From Chloroflexota bacterium (GTDB lineage Bacteria; Chloroflexota; Dormibacteria; CF-121), in NCBI GenBank assembly GCA_005882045.1, contig VBHO01000010.1:680-64679 (forward strand): a DNA stretch of 64,000 nt, read 5' to 3'. The position numbers and the translations under genes are program-made. The notes beneath the pieces were generated by a model that was not told the origin of the DNA, made no database searches, and was given only the letters and a program-made list of their open reading frames with translations. Positions 8,616 through 56,156 of the stretch are shown one piece after another (positions within the stretch are counted from its first letter, which is position 1; every line of letters starts with the position of its first letter).

Positions 8616-8828
8616 CCTCGCCGAATCTAGCAGACGATCGAACCGCCCCAGTGAATGAAAGCCGCTCCAAAAGGGGGAGTGCCTCGGAGCGGCGATGGGA
8701 ACGTGTCAGCGGTGTCCGTAGCATGCACCTCGAAGGCAAAGCGTTGGCCGCCGGACGGTTAACAATCGGACGCCGCTCGCCTTCCTTTAAGGTTGTGTGG
8801 GGACGTCCACTGCAGCGGAGGTGCGGTC

Positions 8829-27953: not shown

Positions 27954-30900
27954 CTACCAGCCGTACGGGCCGGCGGCGGCGGCCGAGTACTCCCGAGCCT
28001 CGCCGTGATTGACGATCGCCGCCCGGTAGAGCCGAATGTACTTCTCGGCCGAGTTGGCCCAGCTGACGTCGGTCGCCATCGCGTTGGCCTGTAGCCGCTG
28101 CCAGAGCTGTGGCTGGCGGAAGGTTTCGAGCGCCCGCACCACCTGGGCGAAGAGGTCCCAGTGGTCGTAGGCGCTGAAGACGAAACCGTTGCCGGTCTGC
28201 CGCACCGGGTCCCAGTCATCGATGGTGTCGGCGAGTCCGCCGGTGGCGCGCACGATCGGGATGGTCCCGTACCGAAGGCTGATCAGCTGGCCCAGCCCGC
28301 AAGGCTCGAACCGCGACGGCATCAGGAACATGTCGGAGCCCGCGTAGATGTGCTGGGCCAGCACCGGCTTGAAGCCGATGGTGGCGGAGACCTTCTGCGG
28401 GTTGTCGCGAGCGCTGGCGCGGAACATCTCCTCGTAACGCGAGTCGCCGGCGCCGAGCACGACGAGCTGGAGGTTCAGCCGCATCAACCCCCACATGATG
28501 TTCGCGATCAGGTCGAGCCCCTTCTGGTCGTAGAGGCGTGAGATCAGGCCGATGACCGGGATCGCCGGATCCTGCGGCAGCCCGGCCTCCTTCTGGAGCG
28601 CCAGCTTGTTCTCGACTTTCTTGTCGACGCTGCCGATGTCGTAGCGGGCGGCGATCGACGTGTCGACCGACGGGTTGAAGACTTCGTAGTCGATGCCGTT
28701 GATGATGCCGTGCAGCTTGCTGCCAAAGACCCGCAGCAGCGGGTCCATCTTCTCGCCGTACTCCGGCGTCAGGATCTCTTCCGCGTAGCGGTTGCTGACG
28801 GTGTTGATGACATCCGAGAAATAGATCCCGCGACCCAGCAGGTTGACGATGTCGTCGAGCCCTGGCATACCGGGCTTGATCAGCCCCCACTGCTCGAGAT
28901 CGGCCAGGTGGAGGGTGCCGTAACCGAAGACCCCCTGGAAGGCGAGGTTGTGAATGGTGAGAACGGTCGCGACATCGGCGAAAAACGGGTCGCCGGCATA
29001 GAGCCGAGCCAGCATGTTGGGGATGACGGCGGTGTGCCAGTCGTTGACGTGGATCACGTCGGGTTGAAAATCGAGCGGCCGCAGCATCTCGAGCGCGGCC
29101 CGGCTGAAATAGATGAAGCGCGCGTCATCGTCCCAGAAGCCGTACATGCCTTCGCGGCCGAAGAATTGCGGGTTGTCGATGAAGTAGATCGGCACCTCGC
29201 CACCGATCCGTCCCTCGAGCACGTCGGCGTTGACCGGTTGGTGCGCCAGGGGGACGCCGAGATTGGTCACGACCTTGCGTAGTCCGTACTTGTCGACATC
29301 GATGCTGCCGTAGCGGGGCATCACCACCCGGACGTCGTGCCCCATGGCCCGCAGCGCCTTCGGCAGCGCGCCCGCCACGTCGGCGAGCCCACCCACCTTG
29401 GCAAAGGGCGCGACCTCGGCCGACACCAGCAGGATCTTCAACGGCCGGTTCGGCCCGCCGTTGGCGACATCGCCCGGCACCCGGACCGCGATCGAGCCGG
29501 TTGGGGGTAACTGTTCGACCGGTTCGCCGTCCTGATGGGCGAGCGCCACCATGTGGAGGGTATCACCGGGGTCGTGGCCGAGAGCATGGAAGGGCACCGC
29601 GAACGCGATCGCGTCGGCGACCCTGGCGCGACCGGTCCAGCGAGACGTCCCGCCGCCCGGCGTCACGTCGTAAAGCTCGAGCTCGACGTCGCTCTCCCGT
29701 CGCTGCACCGTCAGTCGGAAGGCCGGCTCGAAACCGAAATCGGTGGTGGCGGGACCGCTCGGCGCCGCACTCCCGGAAAAGAACATCTCCAGCTTCATCG
29801 GGGGCGTCGCCTGGCGGTCGAGGAGGTCGAAGCGCAAATAGAGGTTGCGGTCGTCATGGCCGAACCAGATCCGGCGCACCGCACCGCGGGGTGGATGCAT
29901 GGCGCCGAAGAGCGCCGTCACGTCGACATAGCCGCCCGCGTTCCACTCGTCCTGGTCGACCCCACCGTTGAGCTTGGGGCTGATCTTCCGATCCGGCCGC
30001 TTGGTGGCCGCTCCCTCAGCGGCCCTCACGATCGGCTGGTAGAGACTCGCCGGTGGGCGTTCGCCGAGCGACATATATATGTTGCGCAGGTGAAGCCGGA
30101 AGAGGCTGTCCCAGATCTGGTCCATGCCGGAGTCGTGCGAGCGCCCGAACCACCAGAACCAATCGCTGCCTTCCGCGATCAGCACTTCTCGGCGCGCCGC
30201 TTTCAGTTGCTCGTGGTCGATGGCATCGCGCTCGCGCTCGCTGAAGAGATCGCGGGCGTCGGCCAGCATGTCCCAGGCGGCGTTGTGCTCCTGGTCACCG
30301 ACCCAGGTGTCGAACGAGGCGTTGATCCAGGACCCCGGATGAATGCGTGACAGCGAGCGGTCCGCCGGGAACTCCGAGAGAAACTCCGAAACGGTCACGG
30401 TCTTCAGTTCGGGCTCGCGGCTCAAGCGCGCGTAGAGCGAACGCAGGAACGGGTTACCGTTCGCTTCGTAGAAATCCCAGCAATTTTCGCCGTCGAGGGC
30501 GATCACGGCGAGGAAGGGGCTGTCCTTCTGGCGTTGCCCGATGGCCCTGAGTCGATCGACCAGGTCCTTGGCCGCCTCGTCGGGGGCCGAATTCTGATAC
30601 TCGAAGCCGATCGCGTTGGACAGGCGCCCGTCGCGGAACAGCAAGTGAATGGGCGGCGAACCACCGGCCTGCACGCGATAGGGCGCATAGAGCACCTCGG
30701 GTTGCATCACCTGCCCCTCGCCGTCGCGCGTGACCGAGCTCGAGAGCGAGCGGGCCAGGATGGCCTCATCGCTGAGCATCCACTCGATACCCTGGTCGGC
30801 CGCGAGTCGCACCACGTCCTCAGAGATGGCCTCTTCCGGTGGCCAGAGGCCGCGTGGTCGAATCCCGAAGCTGCGGGTGTGTGCCTCGATGCCACGACGC

Positions 30901-31658
30901 AGCTGTTCGGCGGCATCCTCCGGATGCGCGAAGGGCCGGTGGGGCATGGCCAGGTCCGGTCGCGCCACCCGCGCGATGCCGATGTCGGCGATCAGCGGGA
31001 GGATCGGGTGGTAGGTGGGGCTGGTGATCAGCTCGGCCTGGCCACGGTCCTGGACCTCGCGATAGGTGGGCAGCACCTTGCTCAGCAGTTGGAGCTGCGT
31101 GTCAAAGACGGGCCCCTTGTCGGCTTCCGCGAAGTCGCGGCCTCGCCGCACCAGCTCGGCGATGACGGGATCGCGCTCCATCACTTCCGGGCCGATCCAG
31201 GAGAGGTTGAACCACACCTGCAGGTCGCGCAGCTCGGCATCGCTGAAGAGGCGGGCCAGGTCAAGGGAACCGCGCGGCCAGGCCTGCTCGCGCTTTCGGA
31301 CCAGCTCGGCGTACCGCGGGTAATCCCGGACCCGACGGATCTGGCTCGACTCGGTCATCCAGCGCGCCACGAAGGCGCGCTCGTCCGCGCTCAGCTCCGC
31401 GACGGGACGGCGGGCAAGCTCGAGGTACACGTCGGAGAAACGACCGTCCGCATAGTCCTGCACCTGGGCGACCAGCGCCGGCACGAGGTTGAAGGTCTGC
31501 TTGATGGCCGGGTAGTCGGCGAGCAGCGCCGGCATCTTGTAGTAGTCCTTGGCGCAACGCAACCGTACCCAGGGGAGGAGGAACTGGTTTTGGAGGTCAT
31601 CCTTGTAATACGGCTGGTGCATGTGCCAGACGAACGCCACATGCAGGGGTCGCGTCAC
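27954..31658 (-). CDS. 1234-aa fusion protein: N-terminal GH57 glycoside hydrolase domain (alpha-amylase/4-alpha-glucanotransferase/branching-enzyme family) + C-terminal GT5 glycogen/starch synthase domain (GlgA-like).
   Basis: N-terminus MTRPLHVAFVWHMHQPYYKD (GH57 HxHQP motif). From about residue 745, KILLVSAEVAPFAKVGGLADVAGALPKALRAMGHDVRVVMPRYG (GlgA KxGGL motif) continues through a full GT5 domain. Single uninterrupted frame. Confidence 0.8.
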   Translation of the reverse strand: MTRPLHVAFVWHMHQPYYKDDLQNQFLLPWVRLRCAKDYYKMPALLADYPAIKQTFNLVPALVAQVQDYADGRFSDVYLELARRPVAELSADERAFVARWMTESSQIRRVRDYPRYAELVRKREQAWPRGSLDLARLFSDAELRDLQVWFNLSWIGPEVMERDPVIAELVRRGRDFAEADKGPVFDTQLQLLSKVLPTYREVQDRGQAELITSPTYHPILPLIADIGIARVARPDLAMPHRPFAHPEDAAEQLRRGIEAHTRSFGIRPRGLWPPEEAISEDVVRLAADQGIEWMLSDEAILARSLSSSVTRDGEGQVMQPEVLYAPYRVQAGGSPPIHLLFRDGRLSNAIGFEYQNSAPDEAAKDLVDRLRAIGQRQKDSPFLAVIALDGENCWDFYEANGNPFLRSLYARLSREPELKTVTVSEFLSEFPADRSLSRIHPGSWINASFDTWVGDQEHNAAWDMLADARDLFSERERDAIDHEQLKAARREVLIAEGSDWFWWFGRSHDSGMDQIWDSLFRLHLRNIYMSLGERPPASLYQPIVRAAEGAATKRPDRKISPKLNGGVDQDEWNAGGYVDVTALFGAMHPPRGAVRRIWFGHDDRNLYLRFDLLDRQATPPMKLEMFFSGSAAPSGPATTDFGFEPAFRLTVQRRESDVELELYDVTPGGGTSRWTGRARVADAIAFAVPFHALGHDPGDTLHMVALAHQDGEPVEQLPPTGSIAVRVPGDVANGGPNRPLKILLVSAEVAPFAKVGGLADVAGALPKALRAMGHDVRVVMPRYGSIDVDKYGLRKVVTNLGVPLAHQPVNADVLEGRIGGEVPIYFIDNPQFFGREGMYGFWDDDARFIYFSRAALEMLRPLDFQPDVIHVNDWHTAVIPNMLARLYAGDPFFADVATVLTIHNLAFQGVFGYGTLHLADLEQWGLIKPGMPGLDDIVNLLGRGIYFSDVINTVSNRYAEEILTPEYGEKMDPLLRVFGSKLHGIINGIDYEVFNPSVDTSIAARYDIGSVDKKVENKLALQKEAGLPQDPAIPVIGLISRLYDQKGLDLIANIMWGLMRLNLQLVVLGAGDSRYEEMFRASARDNPQKVSATIGFKPVLAQHIYAGSDMFLMPSRFEPCGLGQLISLRYGTIPIVRATGGLADTIDDWDPVRQTGNGFVFSAYDHWDLFAQVVRALETFRQPQLWQRLQANAMATDVSWANSAEKYIRLYRAAIVNHGEAREYSAAAAGPYGW

Positions 31659-31669
31659 GATCGAAGAGT

Positions 31670-32335
31670 CTAGCTAACCACCGCTTTTTTCAGCGGTTCG
31701 GGCAGCACCATCTTGTACACGTAAAACAGGCGCGGCGAGTACTCGACGGTGACGCGATCGCCCGGGCTGAGGCGTTGAAAGATGGCGCGGTTGACCCGGA
31801 AGGAGTCCGCCCACAGGCGTTTGGCCATCGCCTTGTCTCCCGTCTGCACGGCGATCCGGTAGCTGCGGCCGAAGACACCCGCGTCACGCCGCATCCCGAC
31901 CACCAGGCCGACCATCGAGGACCGGCGGGCGGCCAGGTCCAGGGTCGCGCGGATCAAGACCGATAATCCCAGCGGGACCAGCACGGTGGAGACGGCGATG
32001 GTAAAGATCATCATGGTCGTCGCCACCGAGTTGACCGGATGCACGACCGAGTCGAACAGCCGCGGACCAAGCGCGGCTGCCGCCGCGCAGCCAAGCGCCA
32101 CCGAGGCGAGACCGCCGATGGCCGCGAGGCGCGGGGACTCGCCATGGCTGATCGACCACAGGTGCCATTTCACGCGCGGCCGCATCGGCCGGCCGTCGGG
32201 GCCGACCGCGATCATCAGGTGTCCCCAGGGCAGCGCGCCATGCGCCAGGCGGAGGATCAGCAGTGAGCCCAACGCCACGGCGACCAGTGACAGATCGATG
32301 ACGGCCGGCAACGCCGGCACGGGCAAGGAAGGCAC
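31670..32335 (-). CDS. Hypothetical polytopic membrane protein.
   Basis: Several hydrophobic helices, no recognisable motif. Lies between the GH57-GlgA fusion and the receiver-domain gene on the same strand. Confidence 0.5.
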   Translation of the reverse strand: MPSLPVPALPAVIDLSLVAVALGSLLILRLAHGALPWGHLMIAVGPDGRPMRPRVKWHLWSISHGESPRLAAIGGLASVALGCAAAAALGPRLFDSVVHPVNSVATTMMIFTIAVSTVLVPLGLSVLIRATLDLAARRSSMVGLVVGMRRDAGVFGRSYRIAVQTGDKAMAKRLWADSFRVNRAIFQRLSPGDRVTVEYSPRLFYVYKMVLPEPLKKAVVS

Positions 32336-32399
32336 CCTTGCGGTATAACCGGCCGGCGGAGCCGACCTTGCAGCGGTCGAATACAGGTTGTATTCGCGG

Positions 32400-32804
32400 C
32401 TAGTGAGTCCGCGCGCTCACGTACTGGCGAACCTTGTCCCGCAGCCTCGGCAGGGGATCGGTCTTCAGGAAGTACTCGTCGCAGCCCGCCCGTCGCGCTT
32501 CCTCGGGCGTCGCCATGCCGGCGGTGTAGACGATCACCTTGATGCCGGCCGAGTACTCGCTAGACCGGATCTTCCGGCACAACTGCAGGCCGTCGAGGCC
32601 CGGCATCTGGATGTCGGCCACCACCACCGACGGCTGCCACTCGAGGCAAAGGCGCCAGGCCTCGTCACCGTCCTTGGCCTCCATCACCTCGTGACCATCC
32701 AGCTCGAGGAGCGTCCGTAACATGGTCCGGACATCGCGGTCGTCATCCGCCACGACCACTGGGGGAAAATCGCTGCCGGGAACAGACGCTGGGACACTAC
32801 TCAT
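32400..32804 (-). CDS. Stand-alone response-regulator receiver domain (CheY-like).
   Basis: VVVADDDRDVRTMLRTLLELDGHEVMEAKDGDEAW...VVVADIQMPGLDGLQLCRKIR...IKVIVYTAG. No output domain. Confidence 0.8.
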   Translation of the reverse strand: MSSVPASVPGSDFPPVVVADDDRDVRTMLRTLLELDGHEVMEAKDGDEAWRLCLEWQPSVVVADIQMPGLDGLQLCRKIRSSEYSAGIKVIVYTAGMATPEEARRAGCDEYFLKTDPLPRLRDKVRQYVSARTH

Positions 32805-32867
32805 CGGAGTCCCCTCCTCGCCATTCCATTCGAAATTCTAGGTCGGATGTCTATCAGACAGCAAGGG

Positions 32868-34073
32868 TCACGCGTACTCGTCCATGGCGCGCAGGAAGTT
32901 GACGTAGACGCGCTGCTGCTCGCGGAGGATGCCAAGGCCGCCCAGCTCCCACCACTCGTCCGGGGTGAAGTAGGCCGAGACCTCGGCCTGGCTGCCGCTC
33001 TTGGAAAACCACTGGATCAGGTGGAGGTTGTCCGACTGCAGCAGCCACATCGCGATGTCCATCAGGTGGGGGTGCTTGGTGAGCTTCGCCTTGTTGTAGA
33101 TGTGGTGCATCAGGCGGAAGATGCCCTGCTGGGCCTCGTTGCCCAGGAAGAAATCCATGCCGCCGTCGCCGGCCCAGGTGCAGCCGTACTCGGGCAGCGG
33201 CATCTCGTGGGCGTCCTTGAAGGTGGCGATCGCCTCCGAGGGGGTCAGGTACTTCATCTTGTTCTTGACCAGGTCGTCGTGGAGCGCGTGCATGAAGGGG
33301 AAAATCCCCGAGTCGGCGCGGTGGTGCTCGCCGAAGGTCTCGAAGTCCCAGGCGAGGAAGACGACCTCCCCCATGGCGCCGCGGAGCCAGTTGGCGTAGG
33401 TGTCGGCCATCAGCGGCCAGCCGTTCCACTCGCGGTTACTGAACCGGTATCCGACGTCGTCACTCAGCTCGTAGTGCCGGGTCAGGAGCCGCATCTCCTC
33501 ATTGGGGTAGCGGTAAAGGTGGGTCGGCTCGCGCCAGCCCATCACCCAGGGCCGGCCGTCCATGACGGCGCCCTTGAAGCCACTCGCCTGCAGCTGGAAA
33601 TAGACGTCGTTCGACATGAACATCTCGGTCGTGTCGGTGACGGCGATCGTCTTCTGGAAAGTCTCCTCGAGCTGCCGCTTGCCCCAGGCCATCCGCTCCG
33701 CGAAGGCCGCGATGTCGAGATAGAAGATGAAGGAGTGGTAGGGCTCGACCGCCACCAGCTCGACGTTCTCGTGACTGACCAGCTTCTGAAAGCCCACCAG
33801 CACGTCCGGACCGTAGCGTCGCATCTGAAGTAGGAGTGAGACCGAGAATCCGAGCGAGATCTTCATGCCCTTGTCGACCAGCGACTGAAAGAGCTCGGTG
33901 GCGGGCCGATAGCAGTACTTCGCCACCTTGTCGAAGTAGCGCCGGTCCATCTGGTCATCGAAGATCAGCGCGTCCATCTTCTCGGGCGGGGTGCCGCGCG
34001 GAATCAGCAGCGCCGGCAGGCGGACCCGCCGGGGCTGGTGCGCGACCATGTAGATCACGAGCGAGTTCGGCAC
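32868..34073 (-). CDS. GH57-family glycoside hydrolase (second copy, single domain).
   Basis: N-terminal LVIYMVAHQPRR (HQP motif). WDFETFGEHH catalytic-region motif typical of GH57. Confidence 0.7.
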   Translation of the reverse strand: MPNSLVIYMVAHQPRRVRLPALLIPRGTPPEKMDALIFDDQMDRRYFDKVAKYCYRPATELFQSLVDKGMKISLGFSVSLLLQMRRYGPDVLVGFQKLVSHENVELVAVEPYHSFIFYLDIAAFAERMAWGKRQLEETFQKTIAVTDTTEMFMSNDVYFQLQASGFKGAVMDGRPWVMGWREPTHLYRYPNEEMRLLTRHYELSDDVGYRFSNREWNGWPLMADTYANWLRGAMGEVVFLAWDFETFGEHHRADSGIFPFMHALHDDLVKNKMKYLTPSEAIATFKDAHEMPLPEYGCTWAGDGGMDFFLGNEAQQGIFRLMHHIYNKAKLTKHPHLMDIAMWLLQSDNLHLIQWFSKSGSQAEVSAYFTPDEWWELGGLGILREQQRVYVNFLRAMDEYA

Positions 34074-34086
34074 GGGCTCTATCCTC

Positions 34087-35370
34087 TCATGGCGTTTTGA
34101 GCCCTTGCTTGAGGGCGACGAACTCCAGGCGCTGCAGCAGGATGTCGATCACGCGTTGCCAGGTGTAGTCACGCGCGGTCCGCTGCGCGGCGATCCGCAG
34201 GTTGCGCGCGGCTTCCGGGCGGGCGGCCAGGTTGGTGACATAGGCGACGATCTCCGCCGCGTCCTCGGTCTCGATCACGATCGCGTTCTTGAAGGGCTGG
34301 GCGTATTCCTCGCCCGTGGCCCCGACGAAGGCGACGCCGCCGGAGGCCATCGCTTCCAGGCCGACCAGGCCGAACGGCTCGTGGCCGCTGTTGGCCAGGG
34401 TCGCGGTGGCCGAGGCGTAGAGCACCGGGAGTAAGTCGTCAGGCAGAAACGCCGTCACGTTCCAGATGTCGGCGTCGGCATGCTCCTTGAGCGCGCTCGC
34501 CAACCCCGCCACGTCCTCGATCCGGGTGGAGAGCGGCGCCACGCGCAGGCCGCGTTGCCTGGCAAAGTCCAGCACCTCACCACCGAACGGCTCCAGTCCG
34601 CCCCGCATTAGCAGCCGTGCCCCGATCCGACGATCCTTCAACTGGGCGACCGCGGCGATCGCCTGGTGCCAGCGCTTGTCGGGACTGAACCGCCCGATCT
34701 TGAAGAGGAAGGCGGGGACGGCCACCGCGGCGCGAACCGCCCGCACCTGCGCCTGGCTGACCCGCGCCATCATCGACCCGGGGATGCCGTTGGGCACCAC
34801 GATCGGGTTCACCCCCCAGCGCCACATGATGTGCTTCATGTAGCGGCTTACCGTCATCAGCGTGGCGACGAAGCCGAGTTGGCCCCAGTTGATGCGGTTG
34901 AACGAGAAGTGGTTGTTGGCGTTCCACAACAGCAGGCAGCGATCGCGGAGCCCGGCGAAATAGAGCGCGTCCGAGATCAGCGACATGGCGTGCGCGATGT
35001 GCCACTCCTCGCCAAGCACCACCACCGTGTGGCCGCGCGCGATCGCCGGCTTGATGTAATCCTTGACCAGCGCGTCGGGCAGGCTGCGGTTCAGGTCCGC
35101 CACCTTGTCGTCCTCGCCGTCGTAGACGCCCACCGGGTGATAGCGGCTGATCCACTGGCTCCAGCGATGGAGCCAGAGCCGGCCATCGAGGGCGCTCTCG
35201 TGCGCCGGGAGCGTCGGATCACCAACGAAGAACAGGTGGGTCTCGAAGCCGCGTTCCGCCAGGGCACGGGAGAGCTCCTTCACCCGCACGCCGAGCCCGC
35301 CGGCCTGGGAATAGACATCCGGGCCTTCGAAGGAGAGGATGATGAAGGTCGTCTGCTCTGGCTCGAGCAT
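34087..35370 (-). CDS. GT4 glycosyltransferase, sucrose-phosphate-synthase-like (sugar-phosphate glycoside synthase family).
   Basis: N-terminal FIILSFEGPDVYSQAGGLGVRVKELSRALAERGFETHLF resembles the SPS/GT4 N-domain. C-terminal GT4 E-x7-E region (SGHEPFGLVGLEAMASGGVAFV). Confidence 0.65.
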   Translation of the reverse strand: MLEPEQTTFIILSFEGPDVYSQAGGLGVRVKELSRALAERGFETHLFFVGDPTLPAHESALDGRLWLHRWSQWISRYHPVGVYDGEDDKVADLNRSLPDALVKDYIKPAIARGHTVVVLGEEWHIAHAMSLISDALYFAGLRDRCLLLWNANNHFSFNRINWGQLGFVATLMTVSRYMKHIMWRWGVNPIVVPNGIPGSMMARVSQAQVRAVRAAVAVPAFLFKIGRFSPDKRWHQAIAAVAQLKDRRIGARLLMRGGLEPFGGEVLDFARQRGLRVAPLSTRIEDVAGLASALKEHADADIWNVTAFLPDDLLPVLYASATATLANSGHEPFGLVGLEAMASGGVAFVGATGEEYAQPFKNAIVIETEDAAEIVAYVTNLAARPEAARNLRIAAQRTARDYTWQRVIDILLQRLEFVALKQGLKTP

Positions 35371-36197
35371 CAGGGCACCCGCTCCCCCACCAGCTGGCGG
35401 GCAAAGGCATGGACCTGCGCGGAGAGTGACGCCAGCACGGTCGTCCTCGAATCGAGGCGCACCGAAACGCCCTCCAGCGGATCCCCGTCGTAGTCGGTCG
35501 CGACCCCGCCAGCCTCCCGGAGGATCAGCAGCGGCCCGGCCAGGTCGAAGGCGCGAACCGGCGCGGGCGTCGCCTGGAGTGCAACGCCGCCGGCTGCCGT
35601 GTGGCAGAGGTTCAGCGCCGCCGAGCCAAGCTGGCGGACCTTTTCCGCCTTCGCGAAGATGGCCGCGGCGCGTTCGCGCGGCTCGACGCCGCTGGGGGCA
35701 TCGAACGAAACCAGCGGAATTGACCGACCATCGAAGGCGGCCGGACTCGGCTGGAGCGGCTTCCCATTTCGAAAGGCGCCGGCGCCCTCGATCGCGTGGA
35801 ACTCGTCGGCGGTCACCAGGTTCTGGACGTAGCCGAGGCGCACCTCCCGGAATCGGTCACCCTCGGTGACAGCCAGCACGACGGCATAGTACGGCAGTCC
35901 CATTTTGGCGTTGACGCTGCCGTCCAGGGGGTCGCAAAGGACGAGCGCCGAGCCACCGAAGTCACGTTCGCCGAGCTCTTCCGAGATCAAGTGAAAACGC
36001 AAACCGCTGCGATAGGCTTGCTCCAGGTGGCGCACGACAATCCCTTCGGCGAGCTGGTCGAGATAGATCGTCCGGTCGCCGCCCGCGCCAAGGCCGACCA
36101 CCTCGCGGCCGCGCACCGTGCCCGCCAGGGGCACGATCTCGGCGCGGATCTCCGCGGCGATGGCGCGGAAAATCGGAAGCCAGGCTTGTGAAGTCAC
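35370..36197 (-). CDS. Inositol-monophosphatase/FBPase-family (IMPase-like) phosphatase.
   Basis: Metal-binding motifs ISEELGE and LCDPLDGSVN. C-terminal CHTAAGGVAL (WD-x-AAG-like). Start overlaps the GT4 stop. Confidence 0.7.
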   Translation of the reverse strand: MTSQAWLPIFRAIAAEIRAEIVPLAGTVRGREVVGLGAGGDRTIYLDQLAEGIVVRHLEQAYRSGLRFHLISEELGERDFGGSALVLCDPLDGSVNAKMGLPYYAVVLAVTEGDRFREVRLGYVQNLVTADEFHAIEGAGAFRNGKPLQPSPAAFDGRSIPLVSFDAPSGVEPRERAAAIFAKAEKVRQLGSAALNLCHTAAGGVALQATPAPVRAFDLAGPLLILREAGGVATDYDGDPLEGVSVRLDSRTTVLASLSAQVHAFARQLVGERVP

Positions 36198-37354
36198 TCA
36201 GCGCGACGGCCGGCAAGCCGTTGCGTCGCTATGGTACCCGAACATTAGCGATCGGGGGGCCGATCCCTGATCGAATCCGGCCCTGGCTCGGCCTTCTCCT
36301 CCTGGCCCTGCTGGTCAAGGCGGTGCTCATCGCCCTCACGCTGGTCGAATTCGGCGCGGCGCCCGATCCGCTGACCGCCCTCGGCCGCGCCTGGGACCGC
36401 TGGGACGCGCAGCACTACCTGTACCTCGCTACCCACGGATACGGTGCGACCGGCGATGCGCGCAACCTGATCGCCTTCTTCCCCCTCTATCCGGCGCTGA
36501 TCAGCGCCATCGCGGCGACCGGCCTCCCCGCGCGCACGGCCGCCCTCGTGATCAGCAATGTCGCCGGCGTGGTGGCCGCCATCCTGCTCTATGAGATCGC
36601 TCGGCACGACCTGCGCGAGAACGCCGCCTTTCGGGCCGCCGCCTTCTTCGTCGTCTTCCCGACCGCCTATTTCCTCCTCGTCGGTTACACGGAAGCGCTC
36701 TTCTGCGCACTCGCCTTCGGCGCGGTCCTCGCGGCGCGACGGCAGCGTTGGCTGGTTGCGGGGATGCTAGGAGGCCTCGCCGCCGCCGCCCGCCTCACCG
36801 GGCTCGCGCTGCTCCCGTTTCTCGTGATCGAGCTCTTTTATGCGCGGCGATCGCTGCGCGAAGCGTGGCAGGTGATCCTCGCGCCAGCGTTGATCGTGGT
36901 TGGCTTCCTGACCTACCTTCTGACCAACCTGCTCGTCCTCGGCGATGCCTTCGCCTTCATCAGCGTGCAGCGCCAGCACTGGTCGCATTCGGTAGCGGCG
37001 CCCTGGGTCGGTTTTGCCGAGGCGATCCGGGGCATCAGCTGGCGGGTGCCGTGGGAGAAGCTGACCGTCGGTGGCGGCGAGGCCGCCGGCGGGATCGCGG
37101 CCTATGCGACGACGGCCCTCAGCTGGCTACGGCTCCGGCCATCGGATGCCGCCTACGCCACGGTGCTCACCGTGATGGTGACCTTTCTGCCCTTCTGGCT
37201 GAGCATCCCGCGCTATCTCCTGGCGATGTATCCCCTCTTCCTCCTCGTGGGACGGATCAACCAGCGATGGATCTACCTGGCGATGGTGGCGGTCTCTTTC
37301 GTGAGCCTGATGGTCTTCGGGCTCGCCTTCGGCCGCGGCTACTGGGCCTTCTAG
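36188..37354 (+). CDS. Integral membrane glycosyltransferase, GT-C superfamily (PIG-V/GT76- or DUF2029/GT87-like mannosyltransferase).
   Basis: About 10 TM helices. First-loop motif WDRWDAQHYLYLATHGY typical of GT-C mannosyltransferases. Divergent from the IMPase gene; true start uncertain. Confidence 0.55.
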   Translation: MKSLSATAGKPLRRYGTRTLAIGGPIPDRIRPWLGLLLLALLVKAVLIALTLVEFGAAPDPLTALGRAWDRWDAQHYLYLATHGYGATGDARNLIAFFPLYPALISAIAATGLPARTAALVISNVAGVVAAILLYEIARHDLRENAAFRAAAFFVVFPTAYFLLVGYTEALFCALAFGAVLAARRQRWLVAGMLGGLAAAARLTGLALLPFLVIELFYARRSLREAWQVILAPALIVVGFLTYLLTNLLVLGDAFAFISVQRQHWSHSVAAPWVGFAEAIRGISWRVPWEKLTVGGGEAAGGIAAYATTALSWLRLRPSDAAYATVLTVMVTFLPFWLSIPRYLLAMYPLFLLVGRINQRWIYLAMVAVSFVSLMVFGLAFGRGYWAF

Positions 37355-37812
37355 GCGAGCAACCTGCGCAAGGCCTCGACGTCTTCGTGTAGAACGTGGT
37401 CGTCGATGGGCGGTGGGTCATGTTCAGGGAAAGGAAAGGGCCAGCCCGGCCGGGGATCGTCGGCGTAGCGAGGGATGATATGCGCGTGCAGATGCGGAAG
37501 GGAATTCCCGAGGACGTTGTAGTTCATCTTCACCGGCTTCAGTTGCGTCTCGAGCGCCTGGGCGACGCGGAGCACCTCGAGCCAGTACGCAGACGCATCG
37601 GTTGTCGAGAGTTCCGTCGGCTCGGCGACATGGCGACCGCGCCAGACGACGACCGTGTAACCGCGCTGGATGTTGGCACGCTGCAGGTACGCATCCGACA
37701 CCCGACCCGCGAAGAAGCGCACACCCCACCGTGTCTCATCGGGCCGACCCTGTCGGCACATCTCGCAGCCTTCGCCACGCTTGAGGGCATAGAAAGACGC
37801 CGGCCACTCCAC
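37351..37812 (-). CDS. HIT-family (histidine triad) nucleotide hydrolase/transferase.
   Basis: Histidine triad NSLPHLHAHIIPR. 153 aa. Confidence 0.8.
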   Translation of the reverse strand: MEWPASFYALKRGEGCEMCRQGRPDETRWGVRFFAGRVSDAYLQRANIQRGYTVVVWRGRHVAEPTELSTTDASAYWLEVLRVAQALETQLKPVKMNYNVLGNSLPHLHAHIIPRYADDPRPGWPFPFPEHDPPPIDDHVLHEDVEALRRLLA

Positions 37813-37837: not shown

Positions 37838-38410
37838 ATGCCCGAGACGCCCGAGCAACTGTACCTTCGTGCCGCGAAAGCGCTGCGCATGCCAGCGGTC
37901 CAGGAGTGGGATACGTTTCCCTTCGACGGTGAGATGCGACCGCGTGCCCTGCAGCCGCCGGGCGAGCATGAGGTGCGCCGGAGCGGCGAAGGCGGAGTCG
38001 ACTGCAAGGCGTGCGCCGCTCCCGACAGCGACTTCCTCTGGACCACGGAGCGCTGGCGTCTTCACAGCCTGCCCAGGCCTTCGGGCCTGCCGGTCATCCT
38101 CTTGCTCCAGCCGCGGGCTCACTACGGAGAACCCGGCGACCTACCGGACGCGATGGCCGCCGAGCTGGGAACCCTTCTGGCCCGCATTGAACGCGCGGTA
38201 CGCAGCATCGACGGCGTTGGACGGGTTCATGTCTGCCGCTGGGGCGACGGCAGCGAGCACCTCCACTGGTGGTTCATGGCGCGTCCCGCACGCTTTCCTC
38301 AGCTGATCGGGAGCTTTGCCGCTATCTGGGACGACGTTCTGCCGGCTACACCGGACAGCATCTGGCGCGACAACCTCGCACTGGTCATCCGCGAATTGAA
38401 TCGCGCCTAG
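37838..38410 (+). CDS. HIT-like protein with degenerate triad (HLHWWF).
   Basis: ...CKACAAPDSDFLWTTERWRL...GDGSEHLHWWFMARP has the HIT topology but the third His is replaced. Divergent from the canonical HIT gene. Confidence 0.5.
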   Translation: MPETPEQLYLRAAKALRMPAVQEWDTFPFDGEMRPRALQPPGEHEVRRSGEGGVDCKACAAPDSDFLWTTERWRLHSLPRPSGLPVILLLQPRAHYGEPGDLPDAMAAELGTLLARIERAVRSIDGVGRVHVCRWGDGSEHLHWWFMARPARFPQLIGSFAAIWDDVLPATPDSIWRDNLALVIRELNRA

Positions 38411-38757: not shown

Positions 38758-40725
38758 CTATCCGGGCGGGACCGCGTAGATCTGGTAGCTCGCAGTATGC
38801 AGCACCAGTCGGAAGGTGGTGTTGAAGTAGTCAAGATTCGGACGAAGCGTCGTCATCTCATTCGGACCGACGACAACGTAATCGGCATGATATTGATGCA
38901 ATAAATCAAGGGCGGTTGCGCCGCCAGCGTAGATTCGCTGGATATCCGCTTCGCGGCGCGTGTAGTTGATGCCGTAGCTCCACAGCCAGCCTGGATAGCT
39001 CATCAGCACCGAACGTCCGGCGAGGTCGGCAATCGGGTTGTTCGGTTGCTCGCCGGTGACGAAGACCGCCTTCGGTGGCGTCTGTTGCCGCACCTGAGCC
39101 GCCAGCTGCACCTCCTCGTTCGTGAACCAGACGTAGGCCGGGCCCTGGGGCGGCAGGAATTGCAGCAGCGACAGCACGCCAGACCCAACCAGGCTCAGCC
39201 AGATCGCGGCCGCGACCACGGCGCCGGCCAGGTGCGCGCGCGCCAGCCGGACGAGCACGGCCTCGACGGCGACCGCACTCGCCATGTACCAGAAGACCAG
39301 CAGTTTGCTGTTGTCCCAGTCCCAGGGTTGAAACTTGATGAGGTTGGCCACAAGGAACACCAGGCTGAAGGGCGCGATCAGCAGGCGCATCCGCCCCCGC
39401 AAGGCCAGCGGACTCAGCAGGGCGAGCAGCAGGAGCGGCCAGAACAGCCCCGTGTTCTTGATCCAGAACCAGGGCGGGAAGTCCGTGCCCGATACCCAGC
39501 CGATCAGCCACCGCGGGTACTGGTGATCGGGCGGCGCGCCGGGATCCCCCGGCACCGCCATCAGCAGTCGCGGCACGGCCAGCACCGCCATGACGGCGAA
39601 GAACCCGAGCCACGCCGGCCGCGGAAAGAGCAGCGCCCAGCAGACGGTCACGATGCCGAGCACGACCAGGCTGTGCACGTGGAAGAGGGGCAGCACGCCC
39701 GTCAGCCCGCCGGCGGTAAGGAAGGCAACGGCGTCGCTCTTGATCGTCCAGCGCCGCCACGACCGACGGATGGCGTCGATGGTTTCGCGCCAACGGAAGA
39801 ACGGCGTCGTCAGGAGTGGCGGCGTCAACAGCAGCAACACCGCCATCACGATCGCCGCGCCGAAGACGAACGATCGCTGCGGGAGGTAGTAGGAGAGAAT
39901 CGGGTTGTACCACTGGATATTGACCGGCGGATCGAATCGGTCGTAGCTGCGCGGAATATGCAGCAACGTATCGAGCAGCCCCAGTCGTGCCGCATCGCCA
40001 AAAAAGAACCAGAATCCGACCCCGCCCCCCAGCAAGGTCAGCGTGACCGCGATGACGCCGGCAGCGGTCCCGCCCGTGAGCCGCCGCGCCCAGAAGATCA
40101 GTCCGCTGAGCGCGAGCACCGTCATTCCCAGGCTCGGCCAGGCTAGCGCGGCCGGGATGGTCCATCCGCCCGCGACCAACAGGGCGCTGGCAAAGTCCGG
40201 CGCAAACGTGTATCGGAACGGCGTCCCCGCGAAGATCGGATTCTGCGGCGGCAGGTTGTGGCCGTAGACGAAGGTGGTCGTGTAGCTGGCGTGGAACGAC
40301 CAGTCGGACCAGGTGTTGTTGTAGTGCGCCATCCAGGCGTCGGGGGTTACCTCCACCGCCCGGAGGAAGAGGTAGCCCATGGTCAGCGCGACAACGGCGA
40401 TCGCGACGGCGACGGATATTGTGGCGGGCTGGGCCCATGGCCGCGTGGCCGCCGCGGAACGGAGCCGCGGGAGGTGGCGCCATAGCTGGAATCCGCCGGC
40501 CGCCAATCCGAGTAGCGCCAGCAGGAGGACGAGCCCACCGGTGACCCCTAACGCGAGCGCGAGCACATAGCCCAGCAGCGTGAGCCCCACCACCGCCAGC
40601 ACGATGCCGATCACCGCGCGCTCGCCCCACGTCAGCCAGGGCGGCCCACCGGCGGCCAGGCCGAGCCCGAGGATGAGACAGCCGGCGACGAGCGCTAGCC
40701 CGGGGAAGTCCAGTAGCAGAGGCAC
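38758..40725 (-). CDS. 655-aa polytopic membrane protein, possible GT-C-type glycosyltransferase or polysaccharide polymerase (unassigned family).
   Basis: More than 12 predicted TM helices with large loops. No motif I can assign. Co-operonic with PMT. Confidence 0.45.
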   Translation of the reverse strand: MPLLLDFPGLALVAGCLILGLGLAAGGPPWLTWGERAVIGIVLAVVGLTLLGYVLALALGVTGGLVLLLALLGLAAGGFQLWRHLPRLRSAAATRPWAQPATISVAVAIAVVALTMGYLFLRAVEVTPDAWMAHYNNTWSDWSFHASYTTTFVYGHNLPPQNPIFAGTPFRYTFAPDFASALLVAGGWTIPAALAWPSLGMTVLALSGLIFWARRLTGGTAAGVIAVTLTLLGGGVGFWFFFGDAARLGLLDTLLHIPRSYDRFDPPVNIQWYNPILSYYLPQRSFVFGAAIVMAVLLLLTPPLLTTPFFRWRETIDAIRRSWRRWTIKSDAVAFLTAGGLTGVLPLFHVHSLVVLGIVTVCWALLFPRPAWLGFFAVMAVLAVPRLLMAVPGDPGAPPDHQYPRWLIGWVSGTDFPPWFWIKNTGLFWPLLLLALLSPLALRGRMRLLIAPFSLVFLVANLIKFQPWDWDNSKLLVFWYMASAVAVEAVLVRLARAHLAGAVVAAAIWLSLVGSGVLSLLQFLPPQGPAYVWFTNEEVQLAAQVRQQTPPKAVFVTGEQPNNPIADLAGRSVLMSYPGWLWSYGINYTRREADIQRIYAGGATALDLLHQYHADYVVVGPNEMTTLRPNLDYFNTTFRLVLHTASYQIYAVPPG

Positions 40726-42338
40726 CAGTTGGGTAGCGGCTTGGTCAGGGCAAACCAGACGTGGCTGTTCAGGGCCTCGCCCGTGAGCGGCAGCCCGGTC
40801 CAGAGCGGATAGAAGTAGATGAAGAAGCCGATCACCATCACCAGGTAGGCATAGGCGGGCACCGCCCCATTGAAGCGGACCGCCATCCCGGGCAGGCGAC
40901 CGGAGAGCGTACGGAGATAGGTGAGCGCAAGCGACAGGGCGAGGAACATCGCCGGTAGCCCGCCCAGCATGTGGTAAAGGAAGAGCCCGCGTGGCACCCG
41001 CGAGAGCGGCAGCCAGGCGCTAAAGAACGAGACGAGGATGAAGATCGAGGCATAGAGGCGCTGGTCCGTAGGTCCTGCCGCAGCGCGCCGCGCCGCTTCC
41101 GCTGGATCGAGCTCGCGCCGAAAGCGATGGTCGCGGATCAGCGCCGGCAATCCAATCGCGATCCCCGCGATCGAAAAAGTCGCCGCCCACCAGATCAGCG
41201 GATTACCCAGGTTGAAAATTTCCGCGACCAGCGTCGAGCCGCTGGATTGATCGACGCCGAGCCCCTGGCCCGCGTAGTAGTAGACGACCGGCCGGAAGTC
41301 GAGCGGCCAGGACCACCAGGGGCTGTAGAAGATGTGGTCCGCTTTGAGATTGATGTGGTAGAGCCAGGTCTGCCGGTGCCATTCCGCGATCTCGGTCCAG
41401 GCCGCACCGGGGTTGACGTGGAAGGGCGCGAAGCCGAGTGCCGGCTGCGGTAGGTTCGTGATTCCGTGGGTGATGGTGACGTAACGGATGAAGGTCAAGC
41501 CGTAAACGATCGCCGGCAACAGGGCGAGGCTGAGCAGTGCGATGCCGGCGGTGGCGCTGTCGTAGCGGGTCCAGCGAACGATCAGGCGAAAGACGAGGAT
41601 CACGATGATGACGCCGTAGGCGGCCAGCGTCGTCCACTTGGCGCCCAGCGCGAGGCCGAGCGTGATGCCGGTGAGCACGATCATCCAGCGCCGTCGAGTC
41701 ACCGTGTCGGCGTTGAGGTGGAGGTGGAACAGCAGATACGCCAGCACCACGAGCGTGATCGGGATGATGTCGATCACGGCCGTGCGCGCCTCGACGAAGG
41801 TCATGCCGTCGAAGGCGGTGAGCACGCCGGCGGCGATCGCGAAGAACCGCACGGACAGTAGCTGGCGGGCGAGCAGGTACATCAGGGGGATCAGCGCCGT
41901 GCCGAAAAGCACCGGCATGAAGCGCCAGCCGAAGGAGTTGAATCCGAACAGCTTGATCCCGATCGCGATCATCAGCTTGGCGAGCGGCGGCTCGGGATCG
42001 AAGTAGTCCTGGCCCAACAGGTCCTTGTTGGCATCGTTGGCGAAGTAGAGCTCGTCGAACACGAAGGGAGAGTTGGGTGCGATGTCGTTCGGTTTGCCCA
42101 GCCCCGCAATCGATGGATCCTGGTAGTTGTGCCCGATACCCCAGGCACTGACGGGCGACGCTGATCCGGGGTGGGCAAAGATGTCGAGAAAGATCGGGCT
42201 GGCGAAGCGAAGCATGCCCGCGACCAGCGTCAGGGCAATCAGCCAGTAGAGGTCGGTGCGGTCGAGGCGCCACCACGCGGCGCGCGAAACTCGCCGGGTC
42301 AATGCGGTCGGAGCCTTAAGTGTTGGCCCCGCTTGCAT
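40695..42338 (-). CDS. pmt: Dolichyl/polyprenyl-phosphate-mannose protein O-mannosyltransferase (PMT family, GT39).
   Basis: First-loop DE motif VFDELYFA, with polytopic topology (ALIPLMYLLAR...). Start chosen at internal ATG 42338, forming an ATGA overlap with the upstream gene stop. The 712-aa ORF-track entry is an over-extension. Confidence 0.75.
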   Translation of the reverse strand: MQAGPTLKAPTALTRRVSRAAWWRLDRTDLYWLIALTLVAGMLRFASPIFLDIFAHPGSASPVSAWGIGHNYQDPSIAGLGKPNDIAPNSPFVFDELYFANDANKDLLGQDYFDPEPPLAKLMIAIGIKLFGFNSFGWRFMPVLFGTALIPLMYLLARQLLSVRFFAIAAGVLTAFDGMTFVEARTAVIDIIPITLVVLAYLLFHLHLNADTVTRRRWMIVLTGITLGLALGAKWTTLAAYGVIIVILVFRLIVRWTRYDSATAGIALLSLALLPAIVYGLTFIRYVTITHGITNLPQPALGFAPFHVNPGAAWTEIAEWHRQTWLYHINLKADHIFYSPWWSWPLDFRPVVYYYAGQGLGVDQSSGSTLVAEIFNLGNPLIWWAATFSIAGIAIGLPALIRDHRFRRELDPAEAARRAAAGPTDQRLYASIFILVSFFSAWLPLSRVPRGLFLYHMLGGLPAMFLALSLALTYLRTLSGRLPGMAVRFNGAVPAYAYLVMVIGFFIYFYPLWTGLPLTGEALNSHVWFALTKPLPNWCLCYWTSPG

Positions 42339-42883
42339 CAGCTCGATTGGCCGCGCAGCCGGCCCTTGATCTGCGCCACGAAATCGTCGACGCCGACGAT
42401 CGGGATCACGATGTCCGCGCCGGCAACCAGACGCGGGCCGAGCTGTCGTTCGGCCGTTTCGATCAGGTCGGCCCGACGGCGGTCGAGCCGGATGTAGGCG
42501 GCGGGCCCACGCCCCAGCCGGCGGACGAAACGGTTGACGAAGCGACGCCGTTCCGCTGGCTGGAAGGCGACCTCGAGCGGTTGGCGGCGGACCCGCGCCA
42601 GCGCGGTGTAGGGCAGCTCGATGTGACGCAGCAGGTAGCGGATCTGGAGCCCATCGTTCGACACGTCGATGTAGGAAATCCGCTGCATCAGCCAGAAGGC
42701 GACAAGAACGACGCCGTCGAGGACCGTGACCGGAATAAAGGAAACGATCGACTGGTGCTGGACCTGCTTGATGACGATCAGCACCACCAGGATGATGAAA
42801 AAGCCGCCGTAGAACCACTTGCCGTCGTTCCAACGCTGGACCGAATAGAGGATCGGATAGCGGCGCCGCGTCGTGTCGCTCAT
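42338..42883 (-). CDS. Membrane-anchored bacterial PH-domain protein (bPH_2/DUF304-like).
   Basis: Two N-terminal TM helices followed by a bPH_2-like segment (...IRYLLRHIELPYTALARVRRQ...IRLDRRRADLI). ATGA-coupled to both neighbouring genes. Confidence 0.55.
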   Translation of the reverse strand: MSDTTRRRYPILYSVQRWNDGKWFYGGFFIILVVLIVIKQVQHQSIVSFIPVTVLDGVVLVAFWLMQRISYIDVSNDGLQIRYLLRHIELPYTALARVRRQPLEVAFQPAERRRFVNRFVRRLGRGPAAYIRLDRRRADLIETAERQLGPRLVAGADIVIPIVGVDDFVAQIKGRLRGQSS

Positions 42884-54351: not shown

Positions 54352-54477
54352 CCGCATTGGGCGGGCTGCACAAAAAGGTGGTCCGCAACTCGTCGTTCCG
54401 GACCGATGACGCGGCCGGCAGCCGCCCCTAGGATCGAGACAGTCGGATCACTGCGTTCACACGGAGGGAAACTCTTT

Positions 54478-56027: not shown

Positions 56028-56156
56028 ATGGAGCAACCAGCAGAGAGAGACAAGCCCTGGCGACCCGGTGACCACCCGCGGCCGGGCCCGTCCTGGGGCG
56101 AGGACGATCGCCCACGGACGGACGTGCCCACGGAGGCCCCCAACGGCGAAGACTGA
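56028..56156 (+). CDS. Candidate small ORF (42 aa, Pro/Asp/Glu-rich) with a strong SD; alternatively the SD serves the downstream GS paralog.
   Basis: AAGAAGAGGAG then 8 nt then ATG. Translation MEQPAERDKPWRPGDHPRPGPSWGEDDRPRTDVPTEAPNGED. Overlaps the annotated start of the second GS in another frame. Confidence 0.3.
   Translation: MEQPAERDKPWRPGDHPRPGPSWGEDDRPRTDVPTEAPNGED

Follow-up and report, generated by a model that had tools for sequence, protein, structure and literature searches.

Introduction

The mycobacterial GlgM-GlgE system combines a glycosyltransferase of family 4 (GT4), the maltose-1-phosphate synthase GlgM, with the GH13_3 maltosyltransferase GlgE, TreS-Pep2 and GlgB; the acceptor of GlgM is a sugar phosphate, glucose-1-phosphate. 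In the mycobacterial methylglucose lipopolysaccharide cluster Rv3030-Rv3032, a GT4 alpha-1,4-glucosyltransferase is encoded next to a GH57 enzyme, and the primer glucosylglycerate is made by the synthase/phosphatase two-step of GpgS and GpgP. Here we describe an operon that recalls both systems, located in a stretch of 64,000 nucleotides (the window; all positions refer to it) from a Chloroflexota bacterium of the Dormibacteria (assembly GCA_005882045.1, contig VBHO01000010.1). It encodes a phosphatase of the inositol monophosphatase (IMPase) family, a GT4 protein, a minimal GH57 protein (GH57s) and a fusion of a GH57 domain to a glycogen synthase (GH57-GlgA). Among soil bacteria, the uncultured Dormibacterota are abundant, and their ability to persist has been ascribed to storage compounds; the operon is their main conserved alpha-glucan locus.

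The likeness to GlgM-GlgE lies in three relatives of the operon (L033, L040 and L046), where the GT4 gene shares one operon with GlgE, TreS-Mak and GlgB; this co-occurrence with the GlgE pathway is absent from the window and from most loci, which carry GH57s or GH57-GlgA and not GlgE. Moreover, the mycobacterial system has no phosphatase partner, unlike the window operon, and the model TIGR02149 scores far below its cut-off here. The same model separates the GT4 from the Rv3032 type, and no methyltransferase or acyltransferase genes are present. Rv3031 is a branching-enzyme-like GH57 of ~526 aa, whereas GH57s has 401 aa and is nearest the amylopullulanase and AmyC fold types; GpgP, unlike the window phosphatase, is not an IMPase-family enzyme.

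A phosphatase gene lying right before, and overlapping, that of a retaining GT-B synthase is a feature shared with otsBA and with the sucrose-phosphate synthase/phosphatase (SPS-SPP) pairs, and the structural matches of the GT4 include OtsA and SPS. However, the window phosphatase belongs to the IMPase superfamily and not to HAD, the glycosyltransferase is neither a GT20 nor an SPS-family GT4, and a phosphorylated acceptor is our proposal. The class IV fructose-1,6-bisphosphatases (FBPases) MJ0109 and AF2372 have the same fold family and metal-binding motifs as the window phosphatase, which is ~30% identical to them, ~20 residues longer and below the equivalog cut-off. To our knowledge, a fixed coupling to a glycosyltransferase has not been described for the archaeal-type IMPase/FBPase family.

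Archaeal glycogen clusters, likened here by their published description, likewise pair a GT4 whose function is unassigned with a small neighbouring GH57 gene of the alpha-amylase type (Picrophilus torridus, Methanoculleus bourgensis; the archaeal GT4s named are WP_011178040.1 and BN140_RS11275; PMC11046441). A 2024 review (Chem Rev, PMC11046441) treats the GT4 genes among archaeal GH57 amylase genes in such clusters as unresolved and speculates on a glycogen synthase or GlgM-like activity. The present module differs in being bacterial and multi-phylum, in having a fused form and in the coupled phosphatase that Dormibacterota add. Dormibacterota genomes have been reported with glycogen and trehalose genes (bioRxiv 10.1101/647651); the review and this general genome description were all that a literature search on GH57+GT4 operons and Dormibacterota carbohydrate metabolism returned. 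Glycogen gene clusters with GH57 and GT-B enzymes are of an already known kind. Apparently new are a GT4/GH57s module that several phyla share and whose acceptor domain is an orphan, the fused form of this module, and its phylum-wide coupling to an IMPase-superfamily phosphatase.

Results

A putative six-gene alpha-glucan operon

Our reading, to which we assign a probability of roughly 0.55, is that the window holds a glycogen-type alpha-glucan operon with a GT4/GH57 module and a phosphatase acting either as partner of the GT4 or as supplier of hexose phosphate. With rather more confidence, the region can be placed in alpha-glucan metabolism with GT4 and GH57s as a functional unit, because their order is conserved across phyla and one natural fusion exists. 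Families were called with Pfam and NCBIfam models against their cut-offs, keeping NCBIfam matches at E<=0.01, and the open reading frames (ORFs) concerned are as follows.

35370..36197, minus strand: IMPase-family phosphatase, 275 aa (PF00459, 6.8e-26); first gene of the operon
34087..35370, minus strand: GT4, 427 aa (Pfam Glycos_transf_1 and Glyco_transf_4)
32868..34073, minus strand: GH57s, minimal GH57, 401 aa (PF03065, 2.7e-43)
32400..32804, minus strand: stand-alone receiver, 134 aa (PF00072, 6.3e-22)
31670..32335, minus strand: predicted membrane protein, 221 aa, an ORF without family assignment
27954..31658, minus strand: GH57-GlgA fusion, 1234 aa (PF03065, 6.6e-62; Glyco_transf_5, 6e-78); last gene of the operon
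36188..37354, plus strand: divergent GT-C (PIG-V, 2e-10, above the Pfam cut-off; PMT_2; GT87), judged to lie outside the module

The receiver, GH57, GT4, IMPase-family, GT-C and GH57-GlgA genes proposed in an earlier sequence-only reading of this DNA were all found where it had placed them by ORF, Pfam and NCBIfam analysis. Its same-orientation gene set stood in that all the genes lie on the minus strand; the phosphatase, however, is the first gene and GH57-GlgA the last, and the 221-aa membrane protein (31670-32335) had gone unmentioned. From 5' to 3' the order is phosphatase, GT4, GH57s, receiver, membrane protein and GH57-GlgA, with intergenic gaps of -1, 13, 63, 64 and 11 nt. Because the gaps are so small (-1 to 64 nt), the six genes are taken as one operon; promoter and terminator scans of it were uninformative. 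At 35370, the TGA of the phosphatase and the ATG of the GT4 share one base (TGATG), which confirms the translational coupling already suggested for this pair. The window has a GC content of ~65%, and its nearest database matches are metagenome-assembled genomes (MAGs) labelled Candidatus Dormibacteraeota or 'Chloroflexi bacterium', among them one IMPase 100% identical to the window phosphatase and one GT4 locus at 98% identity.

Conservation in Dormibacterota

Scanning one genome per species with a degenerate pattern gave at least 555 loci with GT4 relatives, of which the best 80 were analysed (66 Dormibacterota-like and 14 from other lineages; denominators below are loci with enough flank). 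The phosphatase lies directly upstream of the GT4 in 59/60 Dormibacterota-like loci and in 0/14 loci of other lineages, and the one-base stop/start overlap is retained in many loci down to 40-45% IMPase identity. GH57s comes next after the GT4 in 41 of 56 Dormibacterota-like loci, and GH57-GlgA lies downstream of it in 44 of 47. Eight Dormibacterota loci pass from the GT4 to GH57-GlgA directly, with neither GH57s nor GlgE between, while in L033, L040 and L046 the phosphatase-GT4 pair is followed by GlgE, the TreS-maltokinase fusion (TreS-Mak) and GlgB, and GH57s is absent. Because the pair stays intact across this swap from a GH57-GlgA to a GlgE operon, the phosphatase travels with the GT4 and not with a particular polymerase. 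In a deeper Dormibacterota clade, the upstream genes are two alpha/beta-hydrolases, and an alpha-glucan phosphorylase lies downstream.

A 698-aa ORF in L046, considered as an IMPase::GT4 fusion, was rejected as an out-of-frame upstream extension. No IMPase domain occurs in the long or N-terminally extended GT4 representatives that were checked.

The remaining genes are distributed more narrowly. The receiver, with its DD, D64, T94 and K113 positions legible in the sequence, was found only where the GT4 is at least ~74% identical to that of the window; neither the deeper Dormibacterota clade nor other phyla have it. It is a clade-specific insertion in the operon, which does not support its earlier inclusion in the proposed pathway. 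The 221-aa membrane protein, whose hydrophobic segments were read from the sequence and whose sole match is a sub-threshold DUF7489, is restricted to the clade close to the window (58-98% identity). Likewise, the GT-C adjoins the phosphatase only in the close clade, alpha/beta-hydrolases taking its place in 16/16 deeper-clade loci, and it is absent in all other phyla; since the linkage to phosphatase and GT4 is not conserved, the GT-C is not part of the module.

The GT4-GH57s module in other phyla

GH57s also follows the GT4 directly in 10 of 11 loci from other lineages, namely Ktedonobacteria (among them a cultured organism, Tengunoibacter tsumagoiensis Uno3, L064, with its GT4 orthologue at 8001-9392), Dehalococcoidia, Elusimicrobia and bins labelled Proteobacteria. 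The GT4-GH57s order is conserved across at least Dormibacterota, Chloroflexota (Ktedonobacteria and Dehalococcoidia) and Elusimicrobiota. Furthermore, among 373 representatives of the GT4 family, P0368 is an 876-aa fusion, GT4::GH57s, with 49% identity to GH57s in its GH57 half. No recurrent phosphatase was seen beside the pair outside Dormibacterota in loci with clustered or annotated neighbours, and the invariant residues of the GT4 are unchanged in the family alignment in phyla without a linked phosphatase.

Four non-Dormibacterota loci have annotated neighbours (L060, L065, L067 and L073), and two from Dehalococcoidia and one from Elusimicrobia show alpha-glucan surroundings. The Dehalococcoidia loci contain extra GH57 genes, a GH57 4-alpha-glucanotransferase and a DUF3417-type alpha-glucan phosphorylase; the Elusimicrobia locus contains a GT5 starch-synthase-domain protein, a GH57+DUF3536 branching-type protein and a 4-alpha-glucanotransferase. 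Across all loci the conserved neighbours are GH57s, GH57-GlgA, GlgE, TreS-Mak, GlgB, alpha-glucan phosphorylase, GH57 4-alpha-glucanotransferase and GT5 synthase, a setting that speaks against the compatible-solute pathway first suggested for this region.

More distant GT4 relatives, at 41-45% identity, in an Alicyclobacillaceae MAG and another lineage (L081 and L088), are directly preceded by a sugar-1-phosphate nucleotidylyltransferase, the same enzyme type as in an 857-aa fusion of the window described below. The two genes overlap by 4 nt in one of the two lineages, and a GH15 glucoamylase is near one; the arrangement is of the same type as glgC-glgA. These nucleotidylyltransferases score best against the mannose-1-phosphate guanylyltransferase model, far below its cut-off, their GDP-mannose pyrophosphorylase likeness being about equal to their GlgC likeness.

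Some further features of these loci were noted in passing. A pyruvate kinase gene lies beside or near GT4-GH57s in L060, L065 and L074, which belong to different lineages; a PASTA Ser/Thr kinase is common to L060 and L074, as is a further neighbour, a YegS/DAGK-like kinase by its annotation in L060 only. In Dehalococcoidia-type loci, a gene of ~100 aa follows the GT4 or GH57s (L067 8371-8676, L073 10594-10923, L069 9462-9884 and L079 7453-7755), with the motif VFWCxDG...ETFAYH...NDFSNWVxDIIGDxKLA; it is absent from the window. Two representatives, P0365 and P0367, carry the same domain, a weak DUF5752 match, as a C-terminal extension of the GT4, and this protein may be a third module component. 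Lastly, a 41%-identical GT4 relative in L085 (a JGI metagenome 3300056599 contig, 8001-9260) lies amid eukaryote-type domains (RhoGEF, C1, Tra1, TMEM33 and protein kinases), which suggests either a family member in a microbial eukaryote or a chimeric contig.

The GT4 glycosyltransferase

No NCBIfam model reaches its cut-off with the window GT4. The ordinary GlgA model TIGR02095 gives 20.7 bits (cut-off 328) and the GlgM/Rv3032-type model TIGR02149 glgA_Coryne 28.9 bits (cut-off 302); no SPS, GpgS, MpgS or PimA model was matched. At E<=1e-30, a search of 1.84 billion proteins yields 373 representatives of the family; source annotations read 'glycosyltransferase family 4 protein' only, and tblastn found no match in a plasmid collection.

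PDB sequence and profile searches align just the C-terminal nucleotide-sugar domain significantly, with archaeal glycogen synthase (2e-14) about level with Thermosynechococcus SPS (4e-14), followed by MshA and GlgM. The SPS structures 6kih and 2r60 match mainly residues ~295-416 of this domain. The former description of the GT4 as SPS-like could therefore not be upheld, since its similarity to SPS is limited to the C-terminal domain and is no better than that to glycogen synthase. Nor is there support for an SPS-type acceptor domain: a profile of the N-terminal (acceptor) domain retrieved no solved structure from the PDB even at E<=10. Foldseek searches with an AlphaFold2 model (predicted local distance difference test score 86.7) returned P. 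abyssi glycogen synthase, MshA, MMP mannosyltransferase, SPS and OtsA as top matches at 12-18% identity, with starch synthases also present and a probability of 1.0 for glycogen synthase, MshA, SPS and OtsA alike. Assignment of the GT4 through solved structures was abandoned, the sequence, profile, N-domain and Foldseek searches failing to separate glycogen synthase, SPS, MshA, OtsA and GlgM.

In the family alignment E-x7-E (E331, E339) and R227/K232 are invariant, the AGGLG loop is present, and an unusually large number of Trp, Arg and Lys residues in the N-domain are invariant; R69, K89, R142, R159 and K179 are likewise invariant. In its modelled two-Rossmann fold, with E-x7-E and the Arg/Lys diphosphate-binding pair, the protein has the predicted features of a retaining GT-B enzyme, and its catalytic residues appear intact. 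Compared by hhalign with the operon's own GlgA domain, it aligns over residues 118-412 at a probability of only 77%, pairing its EEWH, WNANN, TVSRY and PNGIP motifs with NDWH, TIHN, TVSNRY and INGID; His124 of EEWH is replaced by Gln in several family members. By these comparisons, the GT4 is a putative orphan family inside the retaining GT-B glucose-transferase cluster.

The IMPase-family phosphatase

With 91.8 bits against PF00459 (cut-off 27), the window phosphatase falls within the IMPase superfamily. Its best NCBIfam match is NF009321, PRK12676 'bifunctional FBPase/IMPase' (1.7e-50), at 171.5 bits against a cut-off of 264; a profile check between IMPase and FBPase, which the sequence-only reading had advised, thus points nearest to a bifunctional enzyme and yet stays below equivalog level. 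It scores far below cut-off as SuhB (NF008027, 50.2 vs 332 bits), CysQ (27.2 vs 228.8) and HisN (58.2 vs 275). The dismissive alternative, an ordinary GlgA beside a housekeeping SuhB or CysQ in an unconserved pair, is contradicted on all three counts: the phosphatase is distinct from SuhB, CysQ and HisN, the GT4 is distinct from ordinary GlgA, and the pair is conserved.

The nearest solved structures are the dual IMPase/FBPases MJ0109 (1dk4, 4e-25) and AF2372, and the GDRT loop, SEELG, DPLDGS and FDLAG line up with the metal and catalytic motifs of MJ0109. The phosphatase is accordingly classed, from its motifs and profile matches, as a probable relative of the archaeal-type IMPase/FBPases with catalytic motifs predicted to be intact. 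A short loop is a heuristic sign that FBP can bind (PMC2080633). Applied here, the Glu213/loop-length heuristic (PMC2080633) gives an intermediate result, with an uncertain alignment around the diagnostic residue: the FBP-admitting loop has ~21 residues, as against 9-16 in the dual-activity archaeal enzymes and 27 in human IMPase, counts from our own alignment that are weakly informative. A word-indexed search for relatives of the phosphatase returned only sequences at least 80% identical to it.

GH57s and the GH57-GlgA fusion

GH57s scores above the PF03065 cut-off and holds all five conserved regions of GH57, with the catalytic Glu150 (nucleophile) and Asp243 (acid/base) invariant; together with the (beta/alpha)7 barrel and helical domain of the GH57 fold, this makes it a predicted member of the family with intact catalytic machinery. 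By sequence it has no detectable relative among solved structures, and a profile gives a weak match; the nearest folds are of the amylopullulanase and AmyC types. The JGI label is 'alpha-amylase'. A GH57 glycogen branching enzyme was considered and rejected: GH57s lacks the DUF3536 region, and neither the length (~500-560 aa) and DUF3536-type C-terminus of such enzymes nor a closest similarity to the solved ones was found.

The fusion protein scores 543 bits against TIGR02095 glgA (cut-off 328) and is predicted to join an amylopullulanase/alpha-amylase-type GH57 domain to a bona fide GT5 ADP-glucose-type glycogen synthase. Between its GH57 domain and GH57s the relationship is no more than remote (E 0.034), as it is between its GlgA domain and the GT4 (E 0.016). 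Because both halves are so remote, GH57s/GT4 and GH57-GlgA are not recent duplicates; to judge from the family assignments, the operon carries two GH57+GT-B pairs that are independent of each other, the first fused and the second split.

Two unusual ORFs, each from a single MAG, were set aside as possible genuine fusions, deletions or assembly errors and not used as evidence: in L051 (9340-14124) GH57s is in frame with GH57-GlgA (junction ...EWWEL|HQPYYKDD), and in L005 (3796-5502) GH57s runs on into the receiver gene.

Discussion

In the synthase/phosphatase two-step that we favour, the GT4 would be a retaining glucosyltransferase, dependent on a nucleoside diphosphate (NDP)-glucose and forming alpha-linkages, that glucosylates a phosphorylated glucosyl acceptor, for which glucose-1-phosphate, the acceptor of GlgM, or a different sugar phosphate would serve as examples. 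The phosphatase would then strip the phosphate from this product, and the resulting maltose- or maltooligosaccharide-type glucoside would prime or feed GlgA- or GlgE-type polymerisation. GH57s would act on the GT4 product as a retaining alpha-glucan hydrolase or transglycosylase, mirroring the GH57+GT-B build of the neighbouring fusion, with the receiver and the 221-aa membrane protein as lineage-specific regulatory additions. A dedicated, otsBA-like role of the phosphatase is favoured because the pair survives the operon swap and because its overlapping order resembles otsBA, although we put it at somewhat under an even chance. More doubtful is the fuller proposal that the two-step makes a primer or building block for a GlgA- or GlgE-type polymerase, and/or that GH57s is an analogue of GlgE.

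Several points weigh against this interpretation. Donor, acceptor and product of both GT4 and GH57s are deduced, no member of either family having been assayed, and a phosphorylated acceptor cannot be argued by homology because the acceptor domain of the GT4 has no detectable relative. Outside Dormibacterota no phosphatase is linked in the clustered or annotated loci, so dephosphorylation there would need a phosphatase encoded elsewhere. A mannose donor is conceivable, given that the nucleotidylyltransferases of the distant relatives score best against the mannose-1-phosphate guanylyltransferase model, and the nearest solved relatives of the phosphatase would fit a plain gluconeogenic role equally well. 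Moreover, GH57s is missing from some Dormibacterota loci, and L065 carries the pair alongside a complete GT5 and GH57-branching set, so the pair's role is not simply that of synthase plus branching enzyme.

Weighed almost equally with a dedicated partner, and itself short of even odds, is a phosphatase that supplies hexose phosphate as an FBPase/IMPase. Spelled out, a tentative version makes it a class IV (archaeal-type) FBPase/IMPase and the GT4 a second, GT4-type glycogen synthase elongating alpha-1,4 chains that GH57s trims or branches, with no phosphorylated intermediate. The PRK12676 match and the dual-activity relatives MJ0109 and AF2372 are consistent with this, as are two supply-type neighbours elsewhere, namely the sugar-1-phosphate nucleotidylyltransferase upstream of the GT4 in other lineages and the pyruvate kinase, a central-carbon enzyme, near the pair in L060, L065 and L074. 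Archaeal glycogen synthase also gives the GT4 its best PDB-profile and Foldseek scores, and hhalign matches four of its motifs to motifs of the GlgA domain, yet His124 of EEWH, the counterpart of NDWH, is Gln in several family members. A housekeeping FBPase, however, has no obvious reason to stay overlap-coupled to the GT4 through an operon swap; the PRK12676 score (171 vs 264) is below equivalog level, and the loop of ~21 residues lies between the archaeal 9-16 and the 27 of human IMPase, which by our own counts is weakly informative. The GT4 might alternatively make alpha-maltose-1-phosphate from NDP-glucose and glucose-1-phosphate, as GlgM does, with GH57s as polymerase in place of GlgE and the phosphatase controlling or recycling toxic maltose-1-phosphate. 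GH57 enzymes are retaining transglycosylases, like GH13, and in L033, L040 and L046 GlgE sits right after the GT4, in the usual slot of the absent GH57s; this positional exchange of two genes, the sole support for GH57s replacing GlgE as maltosyltransferase, suggests such a role. GlgM is among the structure and sequence matches of the GT4, and by the rule of the review a GT4-type 'GlgA' co-occurring with GlgE is a GlgM (PMC11046441). We nevertheless regard this route as unlikely, since TIGR02149 reaches 28.9 of 302 bits, the eight loci with GT4 followed by GH57-GlgA have neither GH57s nor GlgE, and a maltose-1-phosphate phosphatase beside a maltokinase would mean a futile cycle. We also know of no GH57 enzyme that uses a glycosyl phosphate donor.

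Still less probable is a synthase/phosphatase pair making a free glycoside as compatible solute (glucosyl- or mannosyl-inositol, -glycerate or sucrose-like). The conserved coupled order, which is that of otsBA, the weak matches of the GT4 to SPS and MshA, the action of IMPase-family enzymes on inositol phosphates and the nucleotidylyltransferase of distant relatives, as GDP-mannose-pyrophosphorylase-like as it is GlgC-like, would all suit it. Against it, the conserved neighbours are all alpha-glucan enzymes, no SPS, GpgS or MpgS family model is matched, and the invariant residues of the GT4 are the same where no phosphatase is linked; no inositol-1-phosphate synthase, glycerate-related or osmoregulation gene was seen among the annotated neighbours of the GT4, which tells against the inositol- or glycerate-containing solute once envisaged. 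The other early proposal, a PimA-like GT4, the IMPase and the GT-C building an inositol-containing glycolipid, is essentially excluded. The GT-C divergently abuts the phosphatase in the window and its close relatives, but this adjacency is gone in the 16 deeper-clade loci and all other phyla; the GT-C has another GT-C and an epimerase as neighbours, PimA is not matched, and neither a phosphatidylinositol synthase nor an inositol-phosphate synthase was seen in the vicinity.

If the favoured two-step is correct, glucan metabolism would gain its first example of a glycoside-phosphate synthase partnered by an IMPase-superfamily enzyme, and the pair could explain chain priming or a new route among glucan, maltose and trehalose pools. 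Either the two-step or a GlgE-like role of GH57s would give the multi-phylum GT4/GH57 module its first function and would bear on the initiation of bacterial alpha-glucans and on what GT4 genes do in the glycogen clusters of archaea. If the phosphatase is merely an FBPase, the gene arrangement is unusual but unsurprising.

Surroundings of the operon

The longest ORFs of the GT-C and the phosphatase overlap by 10 nt at their 5' ends (36188-36197), so no intergenic promoter region lies between them; the true start of the GT-C may be an in-frame TTG at 36221 or further downstream. A more plausible home for the GT-C (36188-37354) is what looks like an envelope glycosylation cluster with a PMT-type GT-C and an epimerase. 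Beyond the GT-C lie the following genes.

37351-37812, minus strand: HIT-domain protein
37838-38410, plus strand: 190-aa protein without family match
38758-43977, minus strand: genes including a 655-aa protein without Pfam match, the PMT-type GT-C and the epimerase
40695-42833, minus strand: second GT-C, PMT type
42880-43977, minus strand: NAD-dependent epimerase

About 8 kb from the glucan operon on its other side, an 857-aa fusion (16979-19552, minus strand) combines a sugar-1-phosphate nucleotidylyltransferase (NTP_transferase and LbH) with a phosphohexomutase (PGM/PMM domains I-II). Its best matches, all below cut-off, are the mannose-1-phosphate guanylyltransferase, archaeal GlmM and GlgC models, and it is likely an NDP-hexose supplier. 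Other genes of the window are listed below.

9331-10437, plus strand: PHO4 phosphate transporter
12898-15120, minus strand: polyphosphate kinase 1
19704-20471, minus strand: GalT-like gene (UDP-glucose--hexose-1-phosphate uridylyltransferase/DUF4921-like)
54406-55935 and 56068-57513, plus strand: two tandem glutamine synthetases

Because the GalT-like gene, polyphosphate kinase 1 and the PHO4 transporter lie upstream of the operon, the window holds genes for two storage polymers, polyphosphate and alpha-glucan.

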